Origin: Candidatus Bathyarchaeota archaeon | GTDB lineage: Archaea; Thermoproteota; Bathyarchaeia; Bathyarchaeales; Bathycorpusculaceae | DNA: 64,000 nucleotides | Direction: 5' to 3' | NCBI GenBank assembly: GCA_963832745.1 | Contig: CAWHVC010000004.1 | Coordinates: forward strand, 167,754 to 231,753 | In this document: in pieces, positions 359-18,628 of the stretch | Numbering within the stretch: the stretch's first letter is position 1 | Layout: each line of letters begins with the position of its first letter | Program-made: the position numbers and the translations under genes | Notes under the pieces: generated by a model | Databases searched by the model: none | The model's input: only the letters and a program-made list of their open reading frames with translations | What the model was told of the DNA's origin: nothing

Positions 359-1882
359 TTATTCAAAAAAGTAGATGTTGGCATATTTGCCTGCTACAGG
401 AAACGCTGGGTCGTCATAGACAATGTCTAGTTTTGTGCCGTATTGGTTCAGCTTGTTTTGTACTTGGTTCCAAATTTGGGTTGAAGTATCGTTTGATTCC
501 CATATTCCCCAAATGATGTCGCTGGGGTTTCGCATGCCATAACCATAATTTTTTGGTAAAACCAGTACAGCTTCAGCTTTAACGCATCCATAGGTGACCG
601 CTGGGTTTTGGACTACCTCGTTCCAGAAACGTTCTAACGCCTGAAAATGTTGCTCTTGTAGTGTACCGTAAGGCCCTGACATGTCTGCTGCATAATTGAA
701 TAACATAACGTATCGGGCTCCGTTTTCGTAAGAGGTTTTCATTTGTTCAAACAATTCGTCGCCGTCAGCAAGGTAGGGTGCATGGGTGTATTTCCATGTT
801 AAGATTGTTCCCCAGTCTTTGCCCTGCAAATTGGCTGCCCCACGAACTAAAGCGATTTCTTGGGTGACAGAATTGTTCCAGCCAAGTTCCCCAAGAACCA
901 TGTCGTATCCGCTCTTGCAATCCCACCAGTACAATCCATAATCAGCCGTAAAAACAGGGAATTCCCCTTTGCTTATGTTCCATTGATTCTTTAAATCGGC
1001 TACTGAGGCGCTGGTTTTGTTTACAAAGACTTCAGCGGCGCCGTCACAGTCTGTTAGGGGGTTTTTGCTTGCCACTTGTTGATAAGTTTCTTCTTGGGCA
1101 ATGCGGTTTGAGCCATTTTCCATTGTATAGAAATCATTTTTTAATGTTTCATCTGCTGAATCCCCTGCATTAATAGGAACATAGGAAAGACCGCCCGTGT
1201 ACACTTTACTTGTTGAGTTTGTGATTGTTTCGCTTACTGTTATTGTACCGTTTGGTTTGTATGTAGTCGTATTGGTGTTTCTTAACATGATCGGCATTGT
1301 TACTGATGAATTAGTTGGGTCTACACTGGAAGAAGTTTCTTCCACTCTTTGAACTACAATTGTGCCGTCAAGATAAAATGTTGCAACATACTTGTTTCCA
1401 TCACGATAATTCACTAAGCCATTTTTATTTCTATCCAAGATTATTCCCCGCTCATTCGTGTAATAAATGTCTCCGTCAAGAAATTTACCTCCAGGTTCAT
1501 CACCCAAATAGACGCCTGCAAACATGTCTCCCCACCGTTGCTTCGCTGTGCCTACCCATTCAGCCTTATCTGCAGAAGTTAAAACGTCAAAATAAGCAGC
1601 AAAATGCAGTCCTTTAGCAACAGCATAATCCCCTACCTCATTTACTGCTGTGGCATTATTTTTCAATACGCCTGACTGCAGGACAAACAGGTTAGTGTAG
1701 CTGGCAACTTTGTCGATTAGGGTTTTGGCGTCTTGGATGTTGTTTCCGCCGTAGGTTACGCCAACATAAAACGGTTTCTGCTGTTGGCTACTTTCACCTA
1801 AGCCTGTAAAACTGATGTATGCAATTAAACCTGCCAATAGTAGAAAAATAATCACTGCTGAAAGCACAATTTTTCTTTTCAT
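359..1882 (-). CDS. Membrane-anchored secreted protein, paralog family of unknown function (possible clan GH-A-like TIM barrel with a variable insert)
   Basis: I prefer the ATG at 1882 (MKRKIVLSAVIIFLLLAGLIAY, hydrophobic signal-anchor) over the tracked start at 1909. The N-terminal block KPFYVGVTYGGNNIQDAKTLIDKV...GDEPGGK and the C-terminal block FYTMENGS...MVLGELGWNNS...LTWKYTHAPYL... are shared with 1990-3486 and 3576-5147. Confidence 0.85.
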   Translation of the reverse strand: MKRKIVLSAVIIFLLLAGLIAYISFTGLGESSQQQKPFYVGVTYGGNNIQDAKTLIDKVASYTNLFVLQSGVLKNNATAVNEVGDYAVAKGLHFAAYFDVLTSADKAEWVGTAKQRWGDMFAGVYLGDEPGGKFLDGDIYYTNERGIILDRNKNGLVNYRDGNKYVATFYLDGTIVVQRVEETSSSVDPTNSSVTMPIMLRNTNTTTYKPNGTITVSETITNSTSKVYTGGLSYVPINAGDSADETLKNDFYTMENGSNRIAQEETYQQVASKNPLTDCDGAAEVFVNKTSASVADLKNQWNISKGEFPVFTADYGLYWWDCKSGYDMVLGELGWNNSVTQEIALVRGAANLQGKDWGTILTWKYTHAPYLADGDELFEQMKTSYENGARYVMLFNYAADMSGPYGTLQEQHFQALERFWNEVVQNPAVTYGCVKAEAVLVLPKNYGYGMRNPSDIIWGIWESNDTSTQIWNQVQNKLNQYGTKLDIVYDDPAFPVAGKYANIYFFE

Positions 1883-1890
1883 GGGACAAT

Positions 1891-1978
1891 CGCTTCTAAG
1901 ATTGAGCATTTCACAAGTCGGGGTTTATTTATGTTTTCCAGAATCTGCCAGTTTAAGGTAAAATCTTCAGTGGAGCAA
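1891..1978. repeat. Duplicated 5' flank of the paralog genes, copy B
   Basis: See copy A at 251-338. Confidence 0.9.
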
Positions 1979-1989
1979 AGAAATAAGTG

Positions 1990-3486
1990 TTAAGTTATGT
2001 TCCAGAAGTAAATGTGTGAGTATTTGCCTGTTACAGGAAACGCTGGGTCATCATAAACTATGTCCAGTTTTATTCCGTATTGGTCAAGTTTGCTTTGTAC
2101 TTGGTTCCAGATTTGGGTTGAAGTGGCGTTTGGTTCCCATATTCCCCAGATAACGTCGCTGGGGTTTCGCATGCCCCACCCGTAGTTTTCGGGCAAAACC
2201 AGCACTGCTTCCGCCTTATCGCTTCCGTGAATTTCTGCTGGGTTCTGGACAACTTCTTTCCAGAAGCGTTCGAGGGCTTGAAAATGCTCTTCCTGCAATG
2301 TACCGTAAGGTCCAGTCATATCTTCGGCATAATTGAATATAACAACATAATCCGCTCCAGCCTTGTAGGAAGTTTTCATTTGGTCAAACATTTCAGCCCC
2401 ATCAGTCAAATATGGCGCGTGAGTGTATTTCCAAGTGATTATTGTTCCCCAACTTTTTCCCTGCAAGTTGGCTGCTCCACGGGCCAAACTGATTTCTTGA
2501 CTTACCGAATTGTTCCATGCAAGCTCAGCAAGAACCATGTCATAACCGCTCTGAAGGTCCCACCAGTAAAGTGCATAATCAGAAGTGAAAATCGGGAAAG
2601 ACCTCCCCTTAAGGTTACGTTGCCTGATTAAACCATCTACAAAACCGCTGGTTTTGTCAACATAGAAGTTAGCCGCGGTGTTGTAGTCGCGTAAGGGGTT
2701 TTTGTCTTTCGCTTGTTGATAAGTTTCTAATTGAGCGATGATGTCTGAACCATTTTCCATTGTGTACCTACTGAAACTGACTATTTCCGAAGAAATGATG
2801 CCTATACCCCCTTTTGCTGTTTTTTTCTCGATCATTTCAAAAAAGGTTATTGTGCCGTCTGTCTTGTAGGTTGTCGAGTTGGTTACTACACTATAGGCGG
2901 CGATGAATGAGGGGTCGTTATTATTAGAAAACAATGTGGAACTAGTAGAGTTTGTTTTAGATACCGTTATTGTGCCATTTGGATAAAAACTTCTCGAAAT
3001 ATCAGTTTCATCTGTATTGACTGTGCCGTCTTGCCATTTTGTAACTGACATATCTTCGCCTAAAACTAGCCAGGTAGTGTAACCGTCAAGCATTTTGCCT
3101 CCAGGTTCATCCTCATAATAGATTCCTGCAAACATTTTGCCCCACCGTTGCTCAGCAGCACTTATCCAGGTTGCATCTGAAATGCCGAAGGCTGAAGCAG
3201 CAGCGAAATGTAAACCTTTGGAGACTGCGTAATCGCCAATTTCGTTTACGGCGGTATTGTTTCCTATTATTGTAAATCCTGATTGTACTACAAAGAGGTT
3301 GGTGTAGTTTGCTACTTTGTCTATTAGCAGTTTGGCGTCTTGCACAGTGTTTCCGCAGTAAGTTACGCCTACAAGGAAGGGTTTTTGCTCTTCGCCTTCA
3401 CCGAAGTCTGTGTAGGCAACGAAGATTAGAGAGCTTACAAAGAGGATGCAAATAATTGCTGATGAAAGAATTTCTTTTCGGGTCAC
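1990..3486 (-). CDS. Membrane-anchored secreted protein, same paralog family
   Basis: GTG start, signal-anchor ILSSAIICILFVSSLIFVAY. Conserved blocks KPFLVGVTYCGNTVQDAKLLIDKV, YEDEPGGK, MVLAELAWNNS, ITWKYTHAPYL. The central ~100 aa are not alignable by eye to the neighbours. Confidence 0.85.
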   Translation of the reverse strand: MTRKEILSSAIICILFVSSLIFVAYTDFGEGEEQKPFLVGVTYCGNTVQDAKLLIDKVANYTNLFVVQSGFTIIGNNTAVNEIGDYAVSKGLHFAAASAFGISDATWISAAEQRWGKMFAGIYYEDEPGGKMLDGYTTWLVLGEDMSVTKWQDGTVNTDETDISRSFYPNGTITVSKTNSTSSTLFSNNNDPSFIAAYSVVTNSTTYKTDGTITFFEMIEKKTAKGGIGIISSEIVSFSRYTMENGSDIIAQLETYQQAKDKNPLRDYNTAANFYVDKTSGFVDGLIRQRNLKGRSFPIFTSDYALYWWDLQSGYDMVLAELAWNNSVSQEISLARGAANLQGKSWGTIITWKYTHAPYLTDGAEMFDQMKTSYKAGADYVVIFNYAEDMTGPYGTLQEEHFQALERFWKEVVQNPAEIHGSDKAEAVLVLPENYGWGMRNPSDVIWGIWEPNATSTQIWNQVQSKLDQYGIKLDIVYDDPAFPVTGKYSHIYFWNIT

Positions 3487-3575
3487 TGTGGTTCGCTTCT
3501 AAAGATAAGTGTTGTCTTGTTAAATAATTCTTTTCTATAAATCCCATATTTTTGGCAAAATAATGGAAAGGAAGG

Positions 3576-5147
3576 TTAAGTGTCATCCCAATAGTAAACA
3601 TCAGCATACTTGCCTTCAACTGGATGGGCTTGGTCCTGATAGACTATATCTAGTTTAGTGCCATACTGCTCCAGTCTGTTTTGTAGCTGTGTCCATATTT
3701 GACTTGACGTAGCGTTTGGTTCCCATATTCCCCAAATGACGTCAGATGGGTTACGCATCCCCCAGCCATAGTTGCAGGGTAAAACCAGTGTTGCTTCTGC
3801 TTTGATACCTCCCTGAATTACCTTAGGGTTTTGGACTACCTCGTTCCAAAAACGTTCTAATGCTTGAAAATGCTGTTCTTGCAGGGTTCCATATGGTCCT
3901 ATGGCGTCTGCTGCATAGTTGAAAAGTATGACGTATTGGGCTCCGTTTTCATAGGAGGTTTTCATTTGGTTAAAAATTTCGTCACCGTCGGCAAGGTATG
4001 GAGCTTGAGTGTATTTCCATGTTAAGATTGTTCCCCAGTCTTTGCCTTGCAAATTGGCTGCTCCACGAACTAAAGCGATTTCTTGGGCAACAGTATTATT
4101 CCAGCCAAGTTCCGCAAGAACCATGTCATATCCGCTCTGGTAGTCCCACCAGTAAAGACCATAATCGGCAGTAAAAATGGGAAAAGACCCTTGGCTCATA
4201 TTTAATTGCAACTTTGAATTTGCTAATTTTGCTTTGGTTTGGTTTGTGAAGACGTTTGCGGCGCCGTTGCAGTCTGATATGGGGTTTTTGCTCATTGTTT
4301 GTTGGTAAGTTTCTTCTTGAGCAATACGCTTTGAGCCATTTTCCATTGTATAAAAGTCGTTATGTAATATTTCGAATGAATTTTCCCCAATTGGAATAGG
4401 CCAAATAATATGGTTCATACCATTTTCATCAGTTGAATTTGAATCTTGAGCTTTTTGGATAAAATTCTTGCCTGTCGAATTAGAAATTATTTCCTTTATT
4501 GTCATTGAACCATTTGGATCGTAAACAATCGTGTCGGCTGTAGTTACTGTGTTCCATATTGTAATAGAAGAATTGTTTGGGTCAGTAATAGAGGTATCAA
4601 TCGAGTTACTTCTCATTTTAATAATGGTGCCGTTTGGGTAAACATCAACAGAAAATCCCGTATTGGGCTCATTGTAAGAGACTCTTCCATCTTCATTTTT
4701 TACAATAATGGAACTAGAATTTTCATAATTCAAGCAGATTGTGGTGCCATCAAGAAACTTTCCTGCTGGTTCATCATCATAATAGACTCCTGCAAACATG
4801 CTGCCCCACCGTTGCTCAGCAGTGCTTATCCATGTTGCATAAACAACATTGTAACTTGTAGTCGCAGCAAAGTGTAATCCTTTAGTTACTGCGTAATCCC
4901 CTATCTCGTTAATGGCTTGGTCGTTTTTAATTAGGGGTCCTGAATTGAGGACGAACAGGTTTGTGTAGTTGGAGACCTTGTCGATTAGGGTTTTAGCGTC
5001 TTGTACGTTGTTTCCGCCGTAGGTTACGCCTACAAGGAAGGGTTTTTGTTGTTCGCCTTCTCCAAAGTTTGCTTGACTGACAAATATTATTGAGCTTGCA
5101 AGGAGGATGCAAATGATGGCTGATGAAAGTGATTCTTTACGGTTCAA
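3576..5147 (-). CDS. Membrane-anchored secreted protein, same paralog family
   Basis: TTG start, signal-anchor LSSAIICILLASSIIFVSQ. Conserved blocks KPFLVGVTYGGNNVQDAKTLIDKV, YDDEPAGK, MVLAELGWNNT, LTWKYTQAPYL. It has the longest divergent central insert. Confidence 0.85.
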   Translation of the reverse strand: MNRKESLSSAIICILLASSIIFVSQANFGEGEQQKPFLVGVTYGGNNVQDAKTLIDKVSNYTNLFVLNSGPLIKNDQAINEIGDYAVTKGLHFAATTSYNVVYATWISTAEQRWGSMFAGVYYDDEPAGKFLDGTTICLNYENSSSIIVKNEDGRVSYNEPNTGFSVDVYPNGTIIKMRSNSIDTSITDPNNSSITIWNTVTTADTIVYDPNGSMTIKEIISNSTGKNFIQKAQDSNSTDENGMNHIIWPIPIGENSFEILHNDFYTMENGSKRIAQEETYQQTMSKNPISDCNGAANVFTNQTKAKLANSKLQLNMSQGSFPIFTADYGLYWWDYQSGYDMVLAELGWNNTVAQEIALVRGAANLQGKDWGTILTWKYTQAPYLADGDEIFNQMKTSYENGAQYVILFNYAADAIGPYGTLQEQHFQALERFWNEVVQNPKVIQGGIKAEATLVLPCNYGWGMRNPSDVIWGIWEPNATSSQIWTQLQNRLEQYGTKLDIVYQDQAHPVEGKYADVYYWDDT

Positions 5148-5285
5148 ACTTGTGGCTCCTAAGTTGAAGCGTTGACTTGCGCTGCTTATTTATTTTTTCC
5201 AAAATCAAGGCTTTCAGTAAAAATTGCCAAAAAACTTATCTGACCAACTAAACTATTAAATCTCTAAAATGTTCCTTGGAGGCCC

Positions 5286-5477
5286 TTGACTGTGAATAAC
5301 GATAAGGTTGTGGGCAGTTGGAAGCGCAAGCAGACAAAAAAGGTTGTTAAGGCAGCTAAGAAGCCAATTTTCAGGCATCGAGAAATGAAGGGTACTGGTC
5401 TTCGTTGGGCCTCTCAAACTTTTCCTAACCGTGCAGGTATCCGAAACATGAAGAAACATGCCAAAAAAGAAAAGTAG
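5286..5477 (+). CDS. Small, very basic ORF (63 codons, TTG start), product unknown
   Basis: K/R-rich translation (GSWKRKQTKKVVKAAKKPIFRHRE...MKKHAKKEK), co-directional with and upstream of rps19e. I recognise no family. Confidence 0.3.
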   Translation: MTVNNDKVVGSWKRKQTKKVVKAAKKPIFRHREMKGTGLRWASQTFPNRAGIRNMKKHAKKEK

Positions 5478-5702
5478 CCGCCTCGAAAATTTGGAAAAAC
5501 CCTTTATACCGCCCTGATATATGATTATTTTAAGCAGTGTAAGTGGTTTCGCCTCAACGTATCGCCCAGATTGGCGGTAAAGTTGTTACGGGGCGGTCTA
5601 TAGTTTGAAAAACTGCACAATAGTTAACAAGTTGTTCAGAGAATATTTATATTAGGCTTCACTGTTTTACTGCAAGGAAAAACTAAAAGGGACAAGAGCA
5701 TC

Positions 5703-6167
5703 TTGACAACTCCTCATGACGTACCCGCATCCAAGTTCATCGATAGGTTAGCAAAGTACTTGAAAGAAAATGTCGATGAAGTTCAACCATTGCCATGGAC
5801 AAGCGTAGCTAAAACAGGCATGCACGTTGAAAAACAGCCACAGAATCCAAACTGGTGGTATGTTCGCAGCGCATCTGTTCTGCGTAAAGTTTACATTCAT
5901 GGTCCAATCGGCATAGAAGACCTAAGGGCTGATTATGGTGGAAGAAAAAACCGTGGCAGCAAACCTGACCGCGTAAAAAAATCTGGCGGAAGCAGCATCC
6001 GCAAAGTTCTCCAACAGCTCGAGGCAGCAGAATTAATCGTTACCAGCCGTCCAGAAGGAAGAAAAATGTCTCCAAAAGGACGCAAACTACTTCAAGAAGT
6101 TGCTGGTGACCTGCAGAAAGAAATGATAAAAACTGTCCCAGAGCTCAAGAAGTATCAAGGCGAATAA
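5703..6167 (+). CDS. rps19e: 30S ribosomal protein S19e (eS19)
   Basis: HDVPASKFIDRLAKYLKEN...NWWYVRSASVLRKVYIHGPIGIEDLRADYGGRKNRG is the eS19 signature. TTG start, TAA stop. Confidence 0.9.
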   Translation: MTTPHDVPASKFIDRLAKYLKENVDEVQPLPWTSVAKTGMHVEKQPQNPNWWYVRSASVLRKVYIHGPIGIEDLRADYGGRKNRGSKPDRVKKSGGSSIRKVLQQLEAAELIVTSRPEGRKMSPKGRKLLQEVAGDLQKEMIKTVPELKKYQGE

Positions 6168-6172
6168 GTAAG

Positions 6173-6502
6173 ATGTCAGATGACGAGCTTGAGAATATTC
6201 GGAAACGAAAACTTTTGTCTATGCAGAATCGCGTAAGCGATGAGCAAAGGCAAGCTCAAGCTGAAGATAAAATTGAAGCTCAGAAGCAGGCGTTGCTTAG
6301 GCAAATCCTGTCACCTGAAGCAAGACAACGGCTTAACAACCTGAAAATGGTGCGAGCCGACTTCGCAGAGCAAATTGAACTGCAGCTGATCCAGATGGCT
6401 CAAATGGGCAAGTTGCCTATTCCGTTATCTGATGCTCAGCTTAAACAAATCCTGTTGCAGCTTCAATCACGCAAGCGAGAAACAAAAATTACAAGGATAT
6501 GA
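6173..6502 (+). CDS. PDCD5/TFAR19-type DNA-binding protein (MTH1615-like)
   Basis: LRQILSPEARQRLNNLKMVRADFAEQIELQLIQMAQMGKL matches the family, and the position between rps19e and rpl39e is typical in archaea. Confidence 0.8.
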   Translation: MSDDELENIRKRKLLSMQNRVSDEQRQAQAEDKIEAQKQALLRQILSPEARQRLNNLKMVRADFAEQIELQLIQMAQMGKLPIPLSDAQLKQILLQLQSRKRETKITRI

Positions 6503-6506
6503 GAGA

Positions 6507-6665
6507 ATGGCAAGAGTAAAACCAACCGCGAAAAAACGCCGATTAGCTAAAGCATCAAAGGAATCAACGTCTGTTCCAACATGGGTAGTCGCAAGAACTG
6601 ACGGCAAAGTCAGAGTTACACCTAAACAAAGACGGAACTGGCGAACAAGAAAAATAAAGGCATAG
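6507..6665 (+). CDS. rpl39e: 50S ribosomal protein L39e (eL39)
   Basis: MARVKPTAKKRRLAKASKESTSVPTWVVARTDGKVRVTPKQRRNWRTRKIKA. The ATG at 6507 lies inside the longer tracked ORF 6432-6665. TAG stop. Confidence 0.9.
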   Translation: MARVKPTAKKRRLAKASKESTSVPTWVVARTDGKVRVTPKQRRNWRTRKIKA

Positions 6666-6680
6666 GAGAATTGACAATTA

Positions 6681-7148
6681 ATGGTTAACGCAAAAGAAGA
6701 ACAGCAAACAGTTCAAGAAACCGAAGAATTAGCAGAAGCAATCGAAGAACCAGAGACTATACAAGAAGTTTTGCCAGAAGAAGCAGCACAGGAACCAACA
6801 GAAGCAGAAGCCAAAGTAGAAAAACCAAAAAAGAAAAAGAAAGACGAAGAAATCGTTGAAGAAAGAATATACACTATTCCACTTCAGAAAGCCTTGATTC
6901 GTCCACCAAAGAAACGTGCCCCACGCGCAATGCAGTTGGTTAAAATTTTCGTTGCAAAACACATGAAAATGGCTGTTACAGTTTCAGAAGATGAGGAAGA
7001 AGAAGAACTGCCTCATTTAATCATAACCCAAGAGGTTAACGAGAAAATCTGGAGCAGAAGCATCGAGAAGCCACCACGCAAAATCCGTGTTCGCGTAACC
7101 AAGGACAAAGACGGAAACGTCACTGTTCACTTGGCAGAAGCCGAATAA
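6681..7148 (+). CDS. rpl31e: 50S ribosomal protein L31e (eL31) with a long acidic/lysine-rich N-terminal extension
   Basis: eL31 core ERIYTIPLQKALIRPPKKRAPRAMQLVKIFVAKHMK...VNEKIWSRSIEKPPRKIRVRVTKDKDGNVTVHL. It is preceded by ~60 aa (EEQQTVQETEELAEAIEEPE...KPKKKKKDEE) with no internal canonical start. Confidence 0.85.
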   Translation: MVNAKEEQQTVQETEELAEAIEEPETIQEVLPEEAAQEPTEAEAKVEKPKKKKKDEEIVEERIYTIPLQKALIRPPKKRAPRAMQLVKIFVAKHMKMAVTVSEDEEEEELPHLIITQEVNEKIWSRSIEKPPRKIRVRVTKDKDGNVTVHLAEAE

Positions 7149-7213
7149 ACGGCTTTCAAAAATTTCTTTCTTAACTTTTAATATTATTTTTTGGCAAACG
7201 CTATATTGCACAT

Positions 7214-7603
7214 TTGCTCAGTTTTAAATGCCAAAAGTTGATTCCGTTGAACAACACACGCTCAAGATTACCTTCCATATTAAACAACAGTTTTCAGCCA
7301 AAAAGCGCAGAGTACGCTTTTGAGTTGTTCCTTTGCGGTATGACCCAAAAGTCCTTGCAGACAATAAAAGCCGTTAAAACCGTTCTGGACCAACAATTGC
7401 CAAACTACAAACTTGAAGTTATTGACATATTCAAAAACCCCCGACGAACCTGTCAAGAGCAAATCATGACTACGCCAACATTGATCAAAAAATCTCCGTT
7501 GCCCACGCGTAAAATTTCTGGAGATATAACAGGTAAGGACCGGATACTTTGCGGTTTAAACATAAACCAAAAAAGGCAAGCGTTAGGAGCAGAAGAACCA
7601 TGA
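7214..7603 (+). CDS. kaiB: KaiB-like protein (thioredoxin-like fold, circadian clock protein KaiB family)
   Basis: YAFELFLCGMTQKSLQTIKAVKTVLDQQLPNYKLEVIDIFKNPRRTCQEQIMTTPTLIKKSPLPTRKISGDITGKDRILCGLN aligns without gaps to cyanobacterial KaiB (YILKLYVAGNTPNS...[33 protein letters not shown]). The start codon is uncertain (in-frame TTG at 7214, 7238 or 7247). Confidence 0.8.
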   Translation: MLSFKCQKLIPLNNTRSRLPSILNNSFQPKSAEYAFELFLCGMTQKSLQTIKAVKTVLDQQLPNYKLEVIDIFKNPRRTCQEQIMTTPTLIKKSPLPTRKISGDITGKDRILCGLNINQKRQALGAEEP

Positions 7604-8103
7604 CTGAAACAAAAGAAATCCACAAGTTGAAACTGGAGATTGAGCATTTGCAGGGGCGACTGCAAGAGTTAGAGGAAACCATGGCCAGTGTTTGCGGTGG
7701 TACGGCGGATGCAATAATTGTTTCAACAGTTGACGGTGAGAAAGTTTTCACCTTGATGACTGAGGAGCAGCCTTACCGGCTATTTGTGGAGCAGATGCTT
7801 CAGGGTGCAGTTATGCTTTCAGATGATGATACCATTCTTTACTGTAACAAAGCCTTCGCGGGAATGGTGAAAGATAAAGCTGAAGTAGTAGTGGGCAAAA
7901 AACTCCAAACTTACGTATCCCAAAACCTGCATTGTGAGCTAAACATTTTTCTTACAAAAAATAGGCAAGAAAAAGTCCCTCAACAACAGAATTTACTTTT
8001 GCAAACAACAGACGGTTCCGCAGTTGACGTGCAGGTTTCAATTAGCAGGTTTGAGCAAAACGCTTTCAAAGGTTCCTGCCTGGTTTTTGTAAGTTGCCGC
8101 TAA
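7600..8103 (+). CDS. Coiled-coil plus PAS-domain protein with no output domain
   Basis: ATG 7600 overlaps the kaiB stop (ATGA). Heptad-like EIHKLKLEIEHLQGRLQELEETM is followed by a PAS-like core AIIVSTVDGEKVF...TILYCNKAFAGMVKDKAEVVVGKKL. Confidence 0.7.
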   Translation: MTETKEIHKLKLEIEHLQGRLQELEETMASVCGGTADAIIVSTVDGEKVFTLMTEEQPYRLFVEQMLQGAVMLSDDDTILYCNKAFAGMVKDKAEVVVGKKLQTYVSQNLHCELNIFLTKNRQEKVPQQQNLLLQTTDGSAVDVQVSISRFEQNAFKGSCLVFVSCR

Positions 8104-8299
8104 ACCCAGCGTTGAGTGGTCCCTCTATGGGTGAAGCCTAAAAAAGCTTCGCTAATCCGCGAAGATTTAAATGTGTGAAACTTGACTTTACAATTCAAAG
8201 TGTATAGGCGGAAATAAATTTGCAAAGTTTATCTCAATCAAAACATTGGGTGAAGCTTTGCATGGTTTTACGCTAGAACAGTTTAAGGATTGATTAATC

Positions 8300-8968
8300 T
8301 TGACCGTTTATTTATCAAGCATAGTTGGAAGCCCCAGCATAGGCGTGTACTCGCTGGCAACAGAAAACATAGTAATGATTCCACGTATGGTGCCCAAACA
8401 GAAGGCACAAGAATTTGCAGATTGGCTAAAGGTAAAATTAGCTTACACAACGATTAGCGGCTCAGTTTTGACTGGTGCGCTCGCATGCGCAAACTCTAAC
8501 GGCATGTTGGTTGCAAGTTCTATCCGAGAAGAAGAATTAACAGAAATCCGCAGTGTTTTCGACGGCAACATAACTATTATGGAAACAAAAAAAACCGCTT
8601 ACGGCAACCTAATTCTGGTAAATGACAAAGGAGCCGTAGCTGACCCACGCCTTAAGGAGACTGAGGTTAAAAAAATTTCTGAAGCCCTTGGCGTGGAAGT
8701 GTTGCAGTCTGAAATCGCCGGGTTGCCTTATGTGGGTTCTTTAGCTTGCGTCACAAACAAGGGCATTCTAGCTCATCCCATGTTGAAAGATGAAGAACGC
8801 AAAATTCTCGAGCAAGCCCTCAAGGTGCCTGTTGACGTCGGCACAATTAACTGTGGTATTCCATATGTCGGGACAGGCTTAATTGGGAACAGTACTGCAG
8901 CTGTTGCTGGCTCAATGACTACAGGTCCAGAAATGTTCATAATTGAACATGCCTTGGATACCTTGTAA
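8300..8968 (+). CDS. eif6: Translation initiation factor 6 (aIF6/eIF6)
   Basis: SIVGSPSIGVYSLATENIVMIP..., GNLILVNDKGAVADP, GSLACVTNKGILAHP, GLIGNSTAAVAG: the repeated subdomain pattern of eIF6. Confidence 0.9.
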   Translation: MTVYLSSIVGSPSIGVYSLATENIVMIPRMVPKQKAQEFADWLKVKLAYTTISGSVLTGALACANSNGMLVASSIREEELTEIRSVFDGNITIMETKKTAYGNLILVNDKGAVADPRLKETEVKKISEALGVEVLQSEIAGLPYVGSLACVTNKGILAHPMLKDEERKILEQALKVPVDVGTINCGIPYVGTGLIGNSTAAVAGSMTTGPEMFIIEHALDTL

Positions 8969-8993
8969 AATACGCTAAGCCCTTGTTAAAGAA

Positions 8994-10865
8994 TCATTCT
9001 TTTTCTTTTGCAACTAAATTCTTTTTGAAGCCTAAAATAACCAGTATAGTTAAGCTTGTTATTGCCAAAACAGATAGTAACACAATGATGATTGTTTGAG
9101 GTTGTGACGTGTTATTTTCTAGCGACGTCGAGTCGGTTGGGGCAACTATTTGTGTTGGAATGCTTGTTGGTGTTGCCGTGGGTGTAGGTGTAATTTTTGG
9201 GGAGGCGGTCGGGGTTGAAGGTGGAGTTAGAGTTGGTTTAGGCGTTGCTGTGGGTTCAACGGTTGGAGTAGGTGACGGTATTGGCGTGGCTGTGGGAGTT
9301 GGACTTGTTGTAGGCGAAGGTGTTGGGGTTGGTGCAGGAAACGGCTCAGCTGTTTCTGTGTTTCCAAGATAACTTCTATTTGGCAATTCAGACACAAGCG
9401 TTTTCGAGTTAATGTTGTTCCAGTCGTCGGCGAAATTTACCTGCCAAACGCCTATATTATTTAAATTATACTCGAAAATGTTTGTTCCAAGCATTGACAG
9501 GAAAGTTCCCGGTTTGGAAACGCTTAACGTTAATGTATGGGTTTCAAGATTTAAGCTACTAACTCCGCCATCAATTATGTTATTGATGTCTTGATATCTG
9601 TAATCCTGTAAAGGCACCGCTAAAGCACCAGTCACTGGAACGGTGGATAGTTGCATTAACAAGACTGCTGCGTCTGCAGTAGCCTCAGTGCTGACTGAAG
9701 TGTCAGAAAGCATTTTGAACATTCCAGTTGTTTCATCATAAAGTTTGCTTTGCATGATTAAATTCCAAGCTGGGGCTGGACCGGTTGAACCGTCTAAGAG
9801 TGCTTGAATCTTGTTTTGCATATCACTTGTTAAGTTGCCGTAGAATCCGAGCATGGCTGCCCAGGAATTTATTGTGTTTTCAAGTCTTTGCTGTGAATTT
9901 TCTGTTGCATGCACAACAACGTAGTCTGCCCATTGAGGGCTGTTCCATCCGTTGCTTAATGCTCTGGTTTCCATGTCAACGAAAAGATTCTCTACATTAG
10001 GGATTGATGAGTCATATTGGTAAAATTTCCAAATAATCTGGTCGAATGCGCCTGCTTCGCATTCAAAAGTGTTCCACTTGTTGGCGTATTTGTAGAAGCT
10101 TCCGCTGGAACTATTAACCCAAAGATTGGCGTTTTCCCAATTCCACCAATGTTTAGCCTGCGTTAATCCATCCTCTATACCCAACAACCAAAAATTAAGA
10201 TACATATCTATTGTTTGTGCACATTCATCATAATATCTGGGTCCATATTTAATTCCCCAACCAACGCCGTTGGACCCAACACAAAGGACTGGTTTGCCGT
10301 AAGCAGTAACACTATCATTAAACACAGCGTACGCTTCTGAGATGTTCCATTTTGATGTCTGATAATTTAATTGTTCAGCCCATTGGTATGCGTTTAGGAC
10401 ATATCGATTGTATACCATGAAGGAAGCAGTCTCTCCGTTTAAGTAATCAAAGGGTAAACCGCCGATATTTGGTAACATTGTTACTGCGTCTAACGCTGCT
10501 TCTATTGTAGTACTATTGATGCTAACCCCTAACTTGTTTAACTGAATATACCAGTAAAACACTGATTCAGCAGCAGAAGTAGATGAGACATTTATAGAGT
10601 CAACCGCTTGTTGAAGTTGTGCCACCGTAGTTTTACCCAAAACAATGCCGTCATATATTGTTTGCAGACTACTATTCCAGCCGCCATTGGCTTCAATTTT
10701 GCTTTCTAAAACAGAAATTGCAGACGATGAACCTTCCGATTGAGTTGAATAGTTAGTTGTCTGTCCACTAGCAAAGCTTGTTGTTCCAACAAAACAGCTA
10801 AGAATCAAGACGGCTGTAAGTTTTACTGTCGTAATTTGCAGTAATTTGGAAACTTGAGTCTGCAT
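8994..10865 (-). CDS. Secreted surface protein with a Pro/Thr-rich stalk and C-terminal TM anchor, function unknown
   Basis: N-terminal signal ([19 protein letters not shown]), ~480-aa W/N-rich globular part with many N-x-S/T sequons, PT linker ([26 protein letters not shown]...), then [24 protein letters not shown] plus a basic tail. Confidence 0.7.
9130..9345 (-). repeat. Low-complexity Pro/Thr-coding tract (stalk of the surface protein)
   Basis: Imperfect ggtgt/ggagt repeats on the + strand encode (P/T/S)n on the - strand. Confidence 0.8.
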
Positions 10866-11131: not shown

Positions 11132-11359
11132 ATGAAGGTTTTCAGAGTAACCGGCGAAATAAACAAGCCTAACTTGGCAACACCGTTCGCTAAAGAAATC
11201 TTAGCAGAAAAAAGCGAACATGCCGTAGAAAAAGTCTACGCAGAGATAGGCAGCAAACACCGCGTAAAAAGATATCACATAAAAATTTCAGGTTCAACCG
11301 AAGTTCCAGTAGACGAAATCGAAAATGATGTCCTTAAGAAAATAGTTCTTGGGGAGTAA
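11132..11359 (+). CDS. rplX: 50S ribosomal protein LX (L18Ae/eL20 family)
   Basis: MKVFRVTGEINKPNLATPFAKEILAEKSEHAVEKVYAEIGSKHRVKRYHIKI fits the archaeal LX pattern. Conserved position upstream of pfdA-ftsY. Confidence 0.85.
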   Translation: MKVFRVTGEINKPNLATPFAKEILAEKSEHAVEKVYAEIGSKHRVKRYHIKISGSTEVPVDEIENDVLKKIVLGE

Positions 11360-13819: not shown

Positions 13820-15259
13820 TTATCTTATTTGGCGGTCTAGTAGGTTTCCGTTTGCGTCAAACAGTTTAACATCAAGTGCCATTTGGCCAACTGCGTGTGT
13901 TGCACAGCTTAAGCATGGGTCAAACGCGCGTATGACTGCTTCTACACGGTTAAGCATGCCTTCTTGCAAGTGTTGTGCTTTAACATATTTTTTGGCTACT
14001 TGAGTGACCGCCATGTTATAGGCAATGTTGTTGTGTTCTGTCGCGATGACCATGTTGTTCCATGTAATTCTGCCTTGTGGGTCAACTTTGTAGTGGTGAA
14101 TCAATGTGCCTCTTGGTGCTTCGGCGACGCCTACGCCTTCGTAATTGTTAACCATTGCTCTTGATGTGACATGTTCAGAGAGAATTTCTGGGTCTTCCAG
14201 CAGTTTCTTGGCTGTTTCAATGCAGAACAATGTTTCAATTAGTCTAGCGTAATGATATTGGAACGTGCTTTGGACTACACCGTTTTTGCCTAGCTTCTTG
14301 AAGTTTTTGAGTTCTTCATCGGCTAATGGTGTTCCGCAATGTGTTGCAACGTTTAGCCGTGCTAATGGTCCAACACGGTATGCCCCGTCTGGGTAGCCGA
14401 TTGCTTTGAAGTAGGGGAATTTCATGAATGTCCATGGCTCTACTGCTTCGCCGATAAACTCTTGGTACCTTAGGGGGTCAACGCATTCAGCTGCTATGAC
14501 GCCGTCTTTATCCATTATACGCAGTTTGCCGTCATAATGCTCCAAGCCGCCGTCAGGTGTAACCAGTCCCATGTAGTAACTGGGAAAATTGCCAAAGTTC
14601 TCAACTTCCTCGTCGAAACCATCAAGCATCTGCTTATACCTTGCTAACGTGTTCTGGGTAATTTCTAACGCTTCTGGCAACTTGTTTTGTAGGTAATCGG
14701 CGCGTTCTTTTGTTAATGGCCATTTTGCGCCTCCAGGCTGGATCCAGTCGCTTGAATGGATACGTTTACCTGCAACTTTCTCGATGAGTTCTTGTCCGAA
14801 ACGCCGTAGTTTTATGCCTTGCATTGCTATGTCTGGCTGTTTTTCTATTAAGCCGAAGATGTTTCTTTTTGCTGGGTCTGAGTCGAAGCCGAGCAGTAAG
14901 TCTGGTGAGGATAAATGGAAGAAGTTTAGTGCGTGTGACTGGATAAGTTGTCCCATGTGCATTAATCGTCGAAGCATGATTGTGGTTTTTGGTGGTGTTA
15001 AGCCAACTATGGCGTCGCAGGCTTTGGCGGATGCGAGCAGGTGGCTTACGGGACATATTCCGCAGGAACGACTGGTTATTGCTGGCATTTCATAGTATGG
15101 TCTGCCTTCAGTGAATTTTTCAAAGCCTCGAAAGTCTACGACTTTGAATTGTGCTTCTTTTACTGTGTCATCTGGGTTTAACAATATGTTTACTTGAGCG
15201 TGCCCTTCGATACGTGTGACTGGGCTGATTACAATTTTCTTTTCTGGTGTTTTATCCAT
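13820..15259 (-). CDS. hoxH: [NiFe] hydrogenase large subunit, HoxH-like (group 3)
   Basis: N-terminal RIEGH and CGICPVSH; C-terminal DPCLSCATH followed by a 24-aa tail typical of a protease-cleaved extension. Confidence 0.9.
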   Translation of the reverse strand: MDKTPEKKIVISPVTRIEGHAQVNILLNPDDTVKEAQFKVVDFRGFEKFTEGRPYYEMPAITSRSCGICPVSHLLASAKACDAIVGLTPPKTTIMLRRLMHMGQLIQSHALNFFHLSSPDLLLGFDSDPAKRNIFGLIEKQPDIAMQGIKLRRFGQELIEKVAGKRIHSSDWIQPGGAKWPLTKERADYLQNKLPEALEITQNTLARYKQMLDGFDEEVENFGNFPSYYMGLVTPDGGLEHYDGKLRIMDKDGVIAAECVDPLRYQEFIGEAVEPWTFMKFPYFKAIGYPDGAYRVGPLARLNVATHCGTPLADEELKNFKKLGKNGVVQSTFQYHYARLIETLFCIETAKKLLEDPEILSEHVTSRAMVNNYEGVGVAEAPRGTLIHHYKVDPQGRITWNNMVIATEHNNIAYNMAVTQVAKKYVKAQHLQEGMLNRVEAVIRAFDPCLSCATHAVGQMALDVKLFDANGNLLDRQIR

Positions 15260-15794
15260 ATCTTGCTCTGCCCTCCATGCTGGGTGCCCTGCCTGACAGC
15301 AGTTCTGTTAAGACGTAATGTATCAGGTCTGCTGATGGTGGGCATCCTGGAATGTAGAAATCAACTTTAACAATTTCGTGTAGCGGTCTGGCTTTGATAA
15401 GCAGTTTAGGTACCATGTTTGGAACTGCAGCGTTTAAATCTTCAGGAGCTTTGTAAGCGCGTTCCAAAACTTCAGTGTCACTGTTATCCCAAGAATTTCT
15501 AAGTGCTGTAACGTTGCCAGTGACTGCGCAGTCCCCAAGCGAAATCAAAACACGGGTTCTTGACCGCACCTTTTTTAGCATTTCAAGCTGTTCCTCATTT
15601 GCTATTGCACCTTCAATGAGTGTCACGTCAACGTTTTCAGGGAACTCTTTAACGTCCGCTATTGGACTGTAGACAAGATGAATACTTTTTGCTAAATCAA
15701 TTAGTCTCTCATCTTGGTCAAGGAAGGACATGTGGCATCCTGAGCAACCGCTAAGCCAAACTGTTGCAACTCTCGCTTTTCTTTTTGTGGTCAT
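15252..15794 (-). CDS. hoxY: [NiFe] hydrogenase small subunit, HoxY-like (NuoB fold)
   Basis: VWLSGCSGCHMSFLD, GDCAVTGNV, IPGCPP cluster-binding motifs. 8-nt overlap with hoxH. Confidence 0.9.
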   Translation of the reverse strand: MTTKRKARVATVWLSGCSGCHMSFLDQDERLIDLAKSIHLVYSPIADVKEFPENVDVTLIEGAIANEEQLEMLKKVRSRTRVLISLGDCAVTGNVTALRNSWDNSDTEVLERAYKAPEDLNAAVPNMVPKLLIKARPLHEIVKVDFYIPGCPPSADLIHYVLTELLSGRAPSMEGRARYG

Positions 15795-16501
15795 TTACGG
15801 TTTCTCCTTTCAGTGATGAATTCGGCAACGTCACGGTTTTTGGTTTGAGTGATTGGTTCGCCTTCAATATAGATGGCTCCGACTGGGCAGACTTTGGCGC
15901 ATTTGCGGCAACTTGTACAGCTGCAAGAGTTGCCCCATGACTCGTTCAAATCCATAATTACTTCTGTGTCTTTGCCGCGAAGCTTTAAGTCAAGCGTGTG
16001 GACTCCTTCAATTTGGTCGCAAACGCGGATGCAACGTGTACAAAGTATGCAACGGTTTCTGTCAATAACCAAAAAGTCATGTGATGAATCAATGACGTCA
16101 CGGGTAAAGTTGCGTTCAAACATTACATGGTCAACACCCAACTGATTGGCAAGAGCTTGTAGTTCACAGTGGTCGTTGGCAACGCAGACAGAACAGATAT
16201 GTACCCTTTCAGCCATGAGCATTTGAATTGCCATTCTACGGTAATCTTTTAGGCGTTCAGAGTTGGTGGTGATTTCCATGCCGGGGCTAACTGGAGTGGT
16301 GCAGGCAGGAAACAGTTTTGGTGTACCTGTAACTTCTACTAGGCACAGCCGGCAACCGCCATACGGAGTTAACCCTTCTAGGTTGCAGAGTGTGGGAATT
16401 AGGATTCCGTTGTCTTTGGCTGCTTTTAGGATGGTTGTGCCTTCAGGAACGGAAACTTGAACGCCGTCAATTTTTAGGGATACCCTGGGATTTATGCTCA
16501 T
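15791..16501 (-). CDS. hoxU: Diaphorase Fe-S subunit HoxU-like (NuoG N-terminal type: 2Fe-2S plus 4Fe-4S)
   Basis: KIDGVQVSVPEGTTILKAAKDNGILIPTLC...GGCRLCLVEV, then HICSVC...C and two CxxCxxCxxxCP motifs. Confidence 0.85.
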   Translation of the reverse strand: MSINPRVSLKIDGVQVSVPEGTTILKAAKDNGILIPTLCNLEGLTPYGGCRLCLVEVTGTPKLFPACTTPVSPGMEITTNSERLKDYRRMAIQMLMAERVHICSVCVANDHCELQALANQLGVDHVMFERNFTRDVIDSSHDFLVIDRNRCILCTRCIRVCDQIEGVHTLDLKLRGKDTEVIMDLNESWGNSCSCTSCRKCAKVCPVGAIYIEGEPITQTKNRDVAEFITERRNRK

Positions 16502-16503
16502 TT

Positions 16504-18033
16504 TTACTCCTCCGCTTTTTTGTCTTTAAAGCAGACGCCTGCCCTGCATTTTTTATCCACGATATGTTCGATGTATTCTTCTTTGAAGTACCTTAGCGTG
16601 GTTAGAATTGGGTTGGGTGCTGTTTGTCCTAGACCGCACAGGCTGGCGTTACTGATATAATCGCTTGATTTTTCTAAAATGTCAATGTCACTTAATTCGC
16701 CGTTCCCTTGTGTGATTTTATCGAAAATTTCTTTAACACGTGCAAGTCCTGCCCTGCAGGGAGTGCATTTGCCGCAGGATTCGTCAATGCAGAAATCGGT
16801 GAAGAAGCGGGCTGTATCTACCATGCATGAATCCTCGTTAAGTACTACGATGCCGCCTGAACCCATAATTGCGCCTACTTTCTTTAATGAGTCGTAATCG
16901 ATGGGTGCCTCTAGTAGTGTTTCTGGTAAGCAGCCGCCTGATGGGCCTCCGACGAGTACGGATTTGAATTTTTTGCCGTTTGGCATGCCGCCGCCTATGT
17001 CGTAGACTATTTCACGTAGGGTTATGCCCATGGGGACTTCAATTAAGCCTGGGTTGTTGATTTCGCCTGTTAAAGAGAAGCATTTTGTGCCCGTGCAGTT
17101 GGGTAAACCAAAACTTTTGAACCATGCCCAACCGTTCAAAATGATAAGTGGCGTGTTAGCTAATGTTTCAACGTTTTGAATCAATGTAGGCTGTTTCCAT
17201 AAACCCTGGTTTGCTGGGTATGGTGGTCGAGGACGCGGTTGAGCTCTGCGGCCTTCAACTGACGCAAGAATCGCTGTTTCTTCTCCAGCAACAAAAGCGC
17301 CTGCGCCGAAGCGTAATTCAAGGTCAAACTTGAACTGTGTTTCAAGAATGTTATCCCCTAAAAGGTTCATGGCTTTAGCTTGGGCGATGGCTTTCTGCAG
17401 CGTTTGAATAGCTAACGGGTATTCTGAACGGATGTAAATGTAACCTTTTTGTGCGCCAATCGCGTAGCCGGCAATCAGCATGCCCTCGATAATTGCGTGT
17501 GGGTCAGCTTCTGCAAGTGTTCGGTTTGCGAAAACACCTGGGTCACCTTCGTCAAGGTTTGCTACAATGTATTTTGGTGTATCGTGTGCCCGTGCGACTA
17601 GGTTCCATTTTTGTCCTGTTGGGAAACCTGCGCCACCTCTTCCGCGTAGTCCGCTGCTGGTGACTTCGTAAATTACTCCTTGTGGCGTCATAGTTGCAAG
17701 GCATTTTGCAAGTGCCGCGTAGCCGCCTGCCGAAATGTAGTCTTGTATTCTGGTTGGGTCAATTTTGCCTGCGTTTCTAAGCACTAGACGTTGCTGTTTT
17801 TGGAAGTAGCCGTCATTATTGTATAGCATGCTTTTGACGGGTAATCCTAACACGATGTGGTCGCGTACGATTTCGCGGACGTTTTCAGGTTTGACACTTT
17901 GATACAGGTGGTCGCCTGGTTCGATAAGTACCGCTGGGCCAACAGAGCATGTGCCAATGCATCCTGTTCTGGCGACTTTGCATATGTTTTCCACGCCGAA
18001 CTCTTTTACCGCATCTTCAAAGGCTTTAAGCAC
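16504..18033 (-). CDS. hoxF: NAD(H)-binding diaphorase subunit HoxF-like (NuoF family). The true 5' end probably lies upstream of the tracked GTG.
   Basis: GLRGRGGAGFPTGQKW (FMN/NADH site), ESCGKCTPCR (4Fe-4S), N-terminal thioredoxin-like 2Fe-2S module. The frame stays open to 18153 and encodes two needed Cys (see finding). Confidence 0.85.
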   Translation of the reverse strand: MLKAFEDAVKEFGVENICKVARTGCIGTCSVGPAVLIEPGDHLYQSVKPENVREIVRDHIVLGLPVKSMLYNNDGYFQKQQRLVLRNAGKIDPTRIQDYISAGGYAALAKCLATMTPQGVIYEVTSSGLRGRGGAGFPTGQKWNLVARAHDTPKYIVANLDEGDPGVFANRTLAEADPHAIIEGMLIAGYAIGAQKGYIYIRSEYPLAIQTLQKAIAQAKAMNLLGDNILETQFKFDLELRFGAGAFVAGEETAILASVEGRRAQPRPRPPYPANQGLWKQPTLIQNVETLANTPLIILNGWAWFKSFGLPNCTGTKCFSLTGEINNPGLIEVPMGITLREIVYDIGGGMPNGKKFKSVLVGGPSGGCLPETLLEAPIDYDSLKKVGAIMGSGGIVVLNEDSCMVDTARFFTDFCIDESCGKCTPCRAGLARVKEIFDKITQGNGELSDIDILEKSSDYISNASLCGLGQTAPNPILTTLRYFKEEYIEHIVDKKCRAGVCFKDKKAEE

Positions 18034-18136
18034 TTTAAGTGCGCCAAAGGGTACACAGCCGCTTGAGCAGCAAACGTTAATGCGGTACTTGTAGGCTCTT
18101 TGGAATTCTGTTTCTTGTTCTGCAATTTTTTGTATG

Positions 18137-18628
18137 TCAGACAGTTTCGTCTTTTATGCCTCCAAGTGCGTTTTTGATTTTCCTAATTACTACTTCTTTG
18201 GTTGCTTTACCGATGACTTGGTCGTCTATGACAATGTTTGGTGCCATTGCACAGGCTCCAATGCATCGTGTAAAAAGCAGAGACAATTTGCCGTCGGCTG
18301 TTGAGCCGCCACGTTTGAGGCTGAACTCTTTTTCGATGGCAGTTATAATTTGTTCTACCCCTTTTACGTAGCAGGCGGTTCCAAAGCATGCGGTAACAAT
18401 GTGTTCGCCTGGTTTTCGTAGTTTAAAGAAACTGTAAAAGGTGGTTACTCCGTAAACGTGACTTGGAGGTAAATTCAGTGAACCCGCAATGTCCATAAGC
18501 AGGTTCCTGTCAAGGTAACCGTAAATTTCTTGGGCACGGTGTAAAATTTCTAGAAGTGCGCTTTCTTCGTAATTGTGCTCTTTTAAAACTTTTTCAAGCA
18601 GTACTCGCCGATTGTCGCTTGTAGCCAA
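18137..18628 (-). CDS. hoxE: Diaphorase 2Fe-2S subunit HoxE-like (NuoE family)
   Basis: LLEILHRAQEIYGYL..., CFGTACYVKG ... CIGACAMAP (NuoE Cys pattern). I prefer TTG at 18628, 9 nt after GGAGG. The tracked extension to 18715 reads as non-coding and contains a TATA-like element. Confidence 0.8.
   Translation of the reverse strand: MATSDNRRVLLEKVLKEHNYEESALLEILHRAQEIYGYLDRNLLMDIAGSLNLPPSHVYGVTTFYSFFKLRKPGEHIVTACFGTACYVKGVEQIITAIEKEFSLKRGGSTADGKLSLLFTRCIGACAMAPNIVIDDQVIGKATKEVVIRKIKNALGGIKDETV

Follow-up and report, generated by a model that had tools for sequence, protein, structure and literature searches.

The window analysed here is a stretch of 64,000 nucleotides from a Candidatus Bathyarchaeota archaeon (contig CAWHVC010000004.1 of assembly GCA_963832745.1, positions 167,754 to 231,753 of the forward strand), in which a kaiB gene and a gene for a protein with a coiled coil and a PAS domain (ccPAS) form a two-gene cassette between rpl31e and aIF6, in a cluster of genes for ribosomal proteins. 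Very probably, the cassette arose by reduction of a known and widespread timing or stress operon, kaiC-kaiB-(kaiB)-PAS/histidine kinase. The two genes are truly conserved as a unit, which is a stripped-down variant of that operon and not a new clock module or a new partner logic; taken as a whole, it is probably best explained as an operon remnant that would act in trans as an adaptor and a sensor.

A profile search with an alignment of KaiB proteins identified a KaiB (P0069) in another Bathyarchaeon (contigs L012/L013), in which the same junction between rpl31e and aIF6 is occupied by kaiB, kaiC (569 amino acids, two ATPase domains), kaiB, kaiB and a PAS-HisKA-HATPase kinase (420 amino acids), with flanking proteins 67-84% identical to those of the window. 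The PAS protein of the window aligns with the first 107 residues of this kinase at 39% identity (E = 2e-24), coiled coil and hairpin included. It is 46% identical to another kinase of 425 amino acids (P0144), which is itself 53% identical over its full length to the L012 kinase and 57% identical to a stand-alone relative of 172 amino acids (P0142). On contig L140, a 145-amino-acid frame directly before aIF6 (7480-7917) corresponds to the C-terminal HATPase_c domain of such a kinase (55% identity to the L012 kinase, 62% to P0144) and appears to be left over from the full Kai cassette, in a lineage where KaiB, KaiC and the PAS head are missing. Because of the full form on L012/L013, the relic on L140 and the relations of P0144 and P0142, the ancestor of these Bathyarchaeia is proposed to have carried a full cassette of the KaiC2 or "KaiBC hourglass" type between rpl31e and aIF6. 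The lineage of the window would then have lost KaiC, the KaiB next to it and the HisKA/HATPase part of the kinase, and would have kept the kinase-adjacent KaiB and the coiled-coil/hairpin/PAS module of the kinase as a two-gene operon with its own promoter; other lineages from the same ancestor would have kept different pieces of the cassette.

The identity of the surviving KaiB agrees with such an origin. Among the three copies of L012, the window KaiB is closest to the kinase-adjacent KaiB3 (46% identity, 82 bits), followed by KaiB2 (38%) and KaiB1 (27%). In loci with two kaiB genes, the KaiC-adjacent copy reads LRLYVAGQTP...AIPTLVRKLPEP...GDLSN, and the kinase-adjacent copy often reads LRLYVTGMTP...IDIYQQP...APTLIKKLPLP...GDMSN and has an N-terminal extension of approximately 25-35 residues. 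The motifs GMT and PTLIKK are found in none of 54 KaiC-adjacent KaiBs, in 15 and 14, respectively, of 54 kinase-adjacent KaiBs, and in six and five of the six KaiBs of the reduced and fusion lineages; the window KaiB has both, and by this pattern it is assigned to the kinase-adjacent paralogue. Some bacteria have a fusion of the two KaiB paralogues, a protein of 202-225 amino acids with two KaiB domains that is encoded between kaiC and the PAS kinase (L009 5573-6181 and L011 8001-8678; P0022, P0026 and P0028-P0030). In L030 (5953-8043), a single open frame of 697 codons spans KaiC and the first KaiB without an intervening stop, a possible KaiC-KaiB fusion. Apparent KaiC-KaiB fusions in the high-GC loci L028, L091, L094 and L097 were rejected as open off-frame stretches only.

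The order of kaiB followed by a PAS-headed gene is widespread. Species-representative genomes were scanned with the L012 KaiC, and the best 80 loci (60-73% identity) belong to Bathyarchaeota, Methanoperedens, Acidobacteriota, Bacteroidota, Planctomycetota, Nitrospirota, several proteobacterial classes and other phyla. In all 80, kaiB lies directly downstream of kaiC, with two KaiB domains in 53 loci and one in 27, and in 74 of them the coiled-coil/hairpin/PAS module opens the next gene; of the six exceptions, five lie at a contig end. The module-bearing gene nearly always encodes a histidine kinase, with a median of 465 codons for these frames, and it begins within 100 nucleotides of the kaiB stop codon in 78 of 81 non-redundant loci, overlapping it in 24. 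When 1.84 billion representative proteins were searched with a profile of the PAS module, 535 matches were obtained at E <= 1e-30, and in most of the best 150 the module occupies approximately residues 5-167 of a much longer protein. Ten module proteins were scanned for domains: the five that are long enough carry HisKA/HATPase_c, two of them also a receiver domain, and the other five (217-459 amino acids) contain PAS domains only. Thus PAS partners do recur in the neighbourhoods of kaiB genes, in 74 of the 80 KaiC loci, and the proposal of an earlier sequence-only reading that the cassette obeys a different partner logic is not borne out: KaiB followed by ccPAS is the conserved 3′ end of kaiC-kaiB-PAS/histidine-kinase operons. 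Such an operon has been described in Rhodopseudomonas palustris and Rhodobacter sphaeroides (PMC4794148), and a kinase gene nearly always comes next in non-cyanobacterial kaiCB clusters (PMC3164672; for the general context likewise PMC10931921).

Within the Bathyarchaeia, the pair is conserved as such. The PAS protein has orthologues in 16 clusters (57-71% identity; NCBI labels two of them Candidatus Bathyarchaeia), and in every case for which the context is available KaiB and the PAS protein are encoded between rpl31e and aIF6 (GCA_042296865.1, with the complete 3.04-Mb chromosome CP170178.1; GCA_030153525.1; a 511-kb contig from JGI; GCA_040961035.1; GCA_040268405.1). The two-gene form occupies this site in four or more further Bathyarchaeia assemblies, and in at least five lineages of species rank neither frame is disrupted. 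The flanking housekeeping proteins of these relatives are 84-98% identical to those of the window, but KaiB and the PAS protein only 55-70%. Pairwise ratios of nonsynonymous to synonymous substitution rates (dN/dS, NG86) are 0.10-0.23 for kaiB and 0.08-0.29 for the ccPAS gene, compared with 0.05-0.08 for aIF6 and 0.03-0.06 for ftsY, all of them rough values with dS near saturation; dN of the cassette genes is three to five times that of the flanking genes. Therefore, KaiB and ccPAS are both under purifying selection and, judged by these substitution rates, evolve several times faster than their neighbours.

In a sister lineage of the window, the two proteins are fused. P0021 (285 amino acids) consists of a KaiB domain joined to the coiled-coil/hairpin/PAS module, and its cluster at 90% identity has 11 members, eight of them 285 amino acids long and from independent assemblies (Logan, NCBI and JGI). 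The fusion gene lies directly after rpl31e in L178, L180 and L181, and in L008 it lies directly before an aIF6 gene whose product is 84.5% identical to that of the window, with no archaellum operon. In L178 a complete archaellum operon (2173-9772, minus strand) is situated between the fusion gene and aIF6, encoding two archaellins (arlB), ArlJ, ArlI, the KaiC-like ArlH (208 bits against the FlaH model NF004723) and ArlF/G-like proteins. A natural fusion argues that KaiB and ccPAS may work as one unit with neither KaiC nor a kinase beside them. Together with the constant gene order and the tight coupling in relatives, it bears out the idea of a dedicated, co-inherited pair.

An AlphaFold2 (AF2) model of P0021, computed from an unpaired alignment of 35 sequences, has a mean predicted local distance difference test score (pLDDT) of 73.7 and a predicted template modelling score (pTM) of 0.43. 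Its KaiB part is modelled as β1-α1-β2-α2 followed by a low-confidence stretch and a final helix; beyond the KaiB part there are a helix of 37 residues, a low-confidence hairpin and a PAS core with pLDDT >90. The AF2 model of the window KaiB (99 sequences) is confident for β1-α1-β2 only; the C-terminal half of KaiB has low pLDDT in both models, which is compatible with a fold switch but does not establish one.

The kaiB gene (7238..7603, plus strand) encodes 121 amino acids from a TTG codon and belongs to the kinase-adjacent (KaiB-2) subtype. Its product matches PF07689 with 56.6-56.8 bits (cut-off 27), and the KaiB domain extends over residues 30-108 (7325..7561, plus strand) by the Pfam limits and by alignment with solved KaiB structures. 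A profile of the window KaiB and its orthologues matches 1R5P, 4KSO, 2QKE, 5JWQ and 8FWJ (E 1e-25 to 1e-21) over approximately 90 residues with one single-residue gap, so that the previously noted alignment with cyanobacterial KaiB does span the whole fold but is not strictly gapless. The hallmark motifs TPTL, PxPxR (here PLP-R) and GD are kept and are invariant in the KaiB alignment; scores against the NCBIfam equivalog models of clock KaiB stay below threshold (63.6 bits versus 110, and 61.3 versus 145). The conserved β1 strand FELFLCG is encoded upstream of the first ATG in the frame, so kaiB must start at an upstream non-ATG codon; the frame is open from 7214, and the in-frame TTG at 7238, which is conserved in four of five relatives, is the likely start. 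Accordingly kaiB begins 65-90 nucleotides past the end of rpl31e, and position 7149, from which the cassette had been counted, marks the rpl31e stop and not the start of kaiB. With hidden Markov models (HMMs), kaiB was found in all of the reduced-cassette loci; gene callers often miss it because of its non-ATG start. The cysteine of the FVCGMT segment was considered as an active-site thiol and rejected; in a hand alignment, it lies three residues before the position of the first cysteine of the thioredoxin CxxC motif.

The ccPAS gene (7600..8103, plus strand) encodes 167 amino acids without HisKA or HATPase domains, a homologue of the sensor module at the N-terminus of KaiB-adjacent histidine kinases. 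Its ATG overlaps the kaiB stop codon as ATGA (7600..7603, plus strand), as had been observed previously, an arrangement expected to couple translation of the two genes, and a GGAG that resembles a ribosome-binding site lies 10 nucleotides before this ATG within the end of kaiB (7586..7589, plus strand). Residues 1-33 (7600..7698, plus strand) form a coiled-coil helix with a clean heptad pattern (a/d positions L10, I14, L17, L21, L24 and M28), which corresponds by alignment to helix 119-155 of the P0021 model. It is followed by a short β-hairpin, IIVSTVDGEKVF (residues 39-50; 7714..7749, plus strand), which is highly conserved with S42, T43 and G46 invariant and whose counterpart in the P0021 model is a pair of strands (161-165 and 168-172) with low pLDDT. 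The PAS domain, comprising an N-cap helix and core (residues 57-165; 7768..8094, plus strand), matches PAS_9 (36 bits, cut-off 27), PAS (29.6, cut-off 22.6), TIGR00229 (36.8, cut-off 22.9) and also PAS_8, and in a Foldseek comparison the PAS core of the P0021 model matches solved PAS domains (EcDOS, FixL, NifL and others) with probability 1.0 at 13-20% identity, the nearest folds being haem and FAD PAS domains. The polypeptide stops directly after this domain. The description of a leucine-zipper-like helix plus one PAS domain with no output domain is therefore confirmed, and this "PAS without output domain" is, by its homology, a histidine kinase minus the HisKA/HATPase part. The C-terminal half of a PAS domain is the usual ligand pocket; in this family it is variable, with no conserved histidine or cysteine and no other conserved cofactor or ligand residue, which makes a conserved PAS cofactor unlikely. 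The candidate of a cofactor bound in the PAS domain was rejected for lack of a conserved pocket residue.

The junction between rpl31e and aIF6 is a variable insertion hotspot. A sample of 80 further Bathyarchaeia metagenome contigs was obtained through their aIF6 genes (products 75-83% identical to that of the window), and none of the 80 has KaiB or the PAS module at the junction. On the 45 contigs that hold both L31e and aIF6, the gap between them is 250 bp or less in 29; other junctions carry unrelated inserts (a small helix-turn-helix protein, a 365-amino-acid ATPase, or 7.2 kb with a GAF-PAS kinase and a transposase), and on no fewer than ten further contigs aIF6 has no L31e gene within several kilobases. 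The 7.2-kb insert, in L131 (631-8001), contains an 826-amino-acid GAF/PAS-type sensor gene and a 295-amino-acid transposase-like gene, which indicates that the junction takes up mobile DNA. In L168, L169 and L177, a single-domain KaiC-like ATPase (255-264-amino-acid frame) is encoded on the minus strand approximately 2 kb upstream of aIF6, with rpl31e not found upstream.

Both the cassette and aIF6 appear to have promoters of their own. A promoter-like motif, TTTTTTGGCAAACGCTATATTGCAC, between rpl31e and kaiB (7187..7211, plus strand) is conserved in the window, L003, L004 and L016 and, at up to four mismatches, is found only in loci with the two-gene cassette; it is the putative promoter of the cassette. 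Upstream of aIF6 there is a promoter-like element of the type with a B recognition element and TATA box, GCGAAGATTTAAATGT (8159..8174, plus strand, by alignment), followed by a conserved leader to 8299; the same element recurs approximately 130 nucleotides upstream of aIF6 in the fusion locus L008 and in relatives whose junction is empty. The region 8159-8299, approximately 140 nucleotides before aIF6, is conserved far above the synonymous sites of the adjoining genes and contains a TTTAAAT box followed by TTTACAGTTCGAAGTG, TTTGCAAAG and CTTTGCATGG, with no Rfam match; it may be either a promoter with a long conserved leader or an unannotated small RNA. Since the cassette has its own upstream motif and aIF6 its own conserved element, the cassette would lie at the boundary between transcription units and not inside one.

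As to what the pair does, the following mechanism is offered tentatively. KaiB and ccPAS, made together by translational coupling, would form a complex, with the thioredoxin-like KaiB bound to the dimeric coiled-coil/hairpin head of ccPAS. Where the system is complete, such a complex would let the kinase read the state of KaiC, in the manner of a split SasA. The N-terminal PAS domain of a KaiC-adjacent kinase of Pseudomonas putida is sufficient to bind KaiC (bioRxiv 10.1101/2022.01.26.477890), which fits a docking role for such heads. The pair of the window would act in trans on a KaiC-family ATPase and/or a related kinase with its gene elsewhere, as an adaptor or competitor under the control of the PAS domain. 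That a kinase-less head can be a working subunit is suggested by analogy with some Bacteroidota, in which a stand-alone ccPAS ends kaiC-kaiB-kaiB operons: in L042, L072, L085 and L088 the gene after the second kaiB encodes a ccPAS of approximately 235-242 amino acids that lacks a kinase domain and has a coiled coil at its C-terminus. In L048 and L057, also Bacteroidota, the ccPAS gene overlaps the start of a gene for 652-694 amino acids full of ANKELxFQNxEKEKRAAEL repeats.

Several observations weigh against a remnant that works in trans. HMM searches revealed no KaiC or kinase gene within 10 kb on either side of the cassette in relatives, and none of the best 80 KaiC hits (at least 60% identity) is from CP170178, JASEKR01, JBFOMV01 or JAWRIR01, in a scan that would miss a more distant KaiC and a collection from which those assemblies may be absent. 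A partner in trans is an assumption, made plausible by the several KaiC-family genes of almost all archaea and by surveys in which KaiB was found only together with full-length KaiC (PMC5520375). Orphan KaiBs may have lost KaiC binding, given their lower family scores (57-68 bits against the Pfam KaiB model for the reduced lineage versus 86-98 bits for KaiC-linked KaiBs). The P0021 model has no confident inter-domain packing (pTM 0.43). KaiB and ccPAS of the window are only 33-46% identical to any full-operon counterpart, and replacement by transfer at the hotspot, instead of decay in place, is a possible source of the cassette. Related sequence was found in four DNA metagenome runs only, with no RNA run and no transcript data among the results. 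A sister relationship of the window proteins to the L012 cassette proteins was considered and set aside, since the BLAST ranking, with many operons at 33-46% identity, hardly separates the candidates and does not decide between decay in place and replacement.

Comparison with known systems shows what has been kept. Like the "hourglass", KaiC2-type kaiC-kaiB-PAS/histidine-kinase operon of R. palustris and R. sphaeroides, the window has kaiB followed by a tightly coupled PAS-headed gene; the N-terminus of the kinase in that operon is homologous to the ccPAS of the window, and the full version occupies the same site in a related archaeon. Unlike that operon, the window has no KaiC, no KaiC-adjacent KaiB and no HisKA/HATPase, and keeps only the kinase-adjacent KaiB and the sensor head. 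SasA, the cyanobacterial clock-output kinase, has an N-terminal KaiB-like thioredoxin-fold domain, so that it resembles the P0021 fusion in having a KaiB-like domain first, joined to a sensor or kinase partner; unlike SasA, the window has these parts as two proteins, the partner being a PAS protein without a kinase, and any binding to KaiC is putative. Fold-switched KaiB recruits partners such as the CikA pseudo-receiver and KaiA by its exposed β2 edge, and serves in the KaiB-CikA and KaiB-KaiA complexes as an adaptor for a signalling protein; the hairpin of the window ccPAS is a candidate for a similar β-sheet pairing with KaiB, although here the partner is a coiled-coil/PAS protein, not receiver-like, and no interface is predicted with confidence. 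The Pseudomonas system resembles the window in that an N-terminal PAS domain is the docking module for the Kai complex, but it has KaiC and a kinase and no KaiB, whereas the window has KaiB and the PAS head with no KaiC or kinase at the locus. The stand-alone ccPAS of Bacteroidota, like that of the window, lacks a kinase domain and directly follows a (second) kaiB, but its operons keep KaiC and both KaiBs, and the protein has an extra C-terminal coiled coil and matches only the first ~126 of 169 profile positions.

At the level of the locus, KaiB is an orphan, as the sequence-only reading had held: an HMM built from 60 KaiC sequences gave a best E of 1.3 across the 64 kb, a Walker-A scan revealed no KaiC gene either, the best match to an HMM of the kinase core had E = 0.23, and HMMs of KaiB and of the PAS module detected no second copy of either. 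The pair might have become independent of KaiC and, once KaiC and the kinase were lost, have taken on a new role as an autonomous two-protein sensor in which the PAS domain controls a thioredoxin-fold binder that acts on an unrelated target. The low family scores of orphan KaiBs would agree with this, as would a dN of three to five times that of the flanking genes combined with dN/dS below 0.3, and the fusion shows that two proteins suffice as a unit. All of the hallmark KaiB motifs (TPTL, PLP-R and GD) are nevertheless kept, archaea almost always encode several KaiC-family ATPases (PMC5520375), and no candidate for another target was found, so that independence from KaiC is unlikely. It is more improbable still that the regulatory target of the pair is not a double-domain KaiC but a single-domain KaiC-like ATPase, such as the archaellum motor protein ArlH. 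The archaellum operon of L178 lies directly between the fusion gene and aIF6, and KaiB homologues have been reported beside RecA-like ATPases in some archaeal type-IV-filament loci (bioRxiv 10.64898/2026.04.22.720090); this is one locus only, at a hotspot junction where adjacency may be chance, the fusion gene of L008 adjoins aIF6 without an archaellum operon, and the window has no archaellum genes.

Two further readings have very little in their favour. Decay products do occur at the site elsewhere, such as the HATPase fragment of L140, and truncated kinases such as P0149 exist, from which it might be supposed that both genes are non-functional leftovers of a decaying operon. This supposition, the most improbable of all, is largely refuted by the preservation of both frames across 16 protein clusters and no fewer than five species-level lineages, with dN/dS of 0.08-0.29, by conservation of the promoter-like motif together with the TTG start, GGAG and start/stop overlap, by retention of both domains in the fusion, and by the absence of any KaiC or kinase-core remnant or pseudogene debris between 6600 and 9000. 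Hardly more probable is a coupling of the cassette to the expression of translation genes through its position in the rpl31e-aIF6 cluster, which had been suggested from the sequence: the genes are on the same strand at short distances and the position is conserved within the clade, but the cassette is absent from all 80 aIF6-anchored relatives, in which the junction is short (29 of 45) or filled with unrelated inserts, and the aIF6 promoter motif is kept with or without the cassette, which has its own upstream motif. The suggested link is thus not borne out, and a reduced operon is the preferred explanation.

The surroundings of the cassette were identified by Pfam families. Upstream of kaiB are the genes for S19e (5703-6167), a PDCD5-like dsDNA_bind protein, L39e and L31e; downstream of the PAS gene are aIF6, L18Ae/rplX (11132-11359), prefoldin alpha and FtsY. 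The insertion site is bordered upstream by rpl31e (6681..7148, plus strand; PF01198, 42 bits), the product of which is 84-90% identical in cassette-bearing relatives, and downstream by aIF6 (8300..8968, plus strand; PF01912, 212 bits), which confirms the two-gene insertion between them. The conserved order recognised previously for the whole cluster also holds, but the cluster is broken a second time, between aIF6 and rplX, by a minus-strand gene for 623 amino acids (8994-10865) with a signal-like N-terminal segment, a long Pro/Thr-rich linker and a C-terminal hydrophobic anchor. The aIF6/rplX junction, which is empty in L003 and L016 and holds different inserts of 435 and 54 amino acids in L004, is a second variable junction of the same ribosomal cluster. 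The L31e protein of the window has 155 amino acids, with a very Glu/Lys-rich N-terminal extension of approximately 60 residues, and the Pfam L31e domain covers residues 62-141 only. On the minus strand at 13820-18715, a cluster resembling NiFe-hydrogenase and NADH dehydrogenase, named by synteny with annotated relatives, encodes a HoxH-type large subunit, Oxidored_q6, Fer2/NADH-G, 51-kDa and 2Fe-2S thioredoxin-like subunits, and is a conserved neighbour of the ribosomal cluster in every relative examined. Three paralogous-looking genes for approximately 500-520 amino acids, the orthologues of which have no Pfam match in relatives, lie on the minus strand at 359-5147, immediately upstream of that cluster; the translation of 3576-5147 begins with a signal-like hydrophobic segment. 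Rfam identified one tRNA only in the window and nothing in or near the cassette.

The finding points neither to a new kind of clock nor to control of translation genes. Its interest lies in the output of Kai systems outside cyanobacteria, where SasA homologues lack the KaiB-like domain and the output route must therefore differ (PMC5520375). A candidate for the output link is a second KaiB paralogue dedicated to the kinase and always paired with the N-terminal coiled-coil/hairpin/PAS module; the cassette of these Bathyarchaeia would be that link in isolation, selected for with neither KaiC nor a kinase adjoining, and fused in a sister lineage. At 121 and 167 amino acids, the two proteins are a small and tractable pair for the study of docking between KaiB-2 and its sensor head, and a natural test of KaiB without a linked KaiC. 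It is doubtful, but would be of consequence, that KaiB-2 and the coiled-coil/PAS head are a self-sufficient unit, acting alone or on single-domain KaiC-like ATPases such as ArlH; if so, this would be the first KaiB module shown to act outside the KaiBC pair, and the minimal form of the non-cyanobacterial Kai output link would be exposed.

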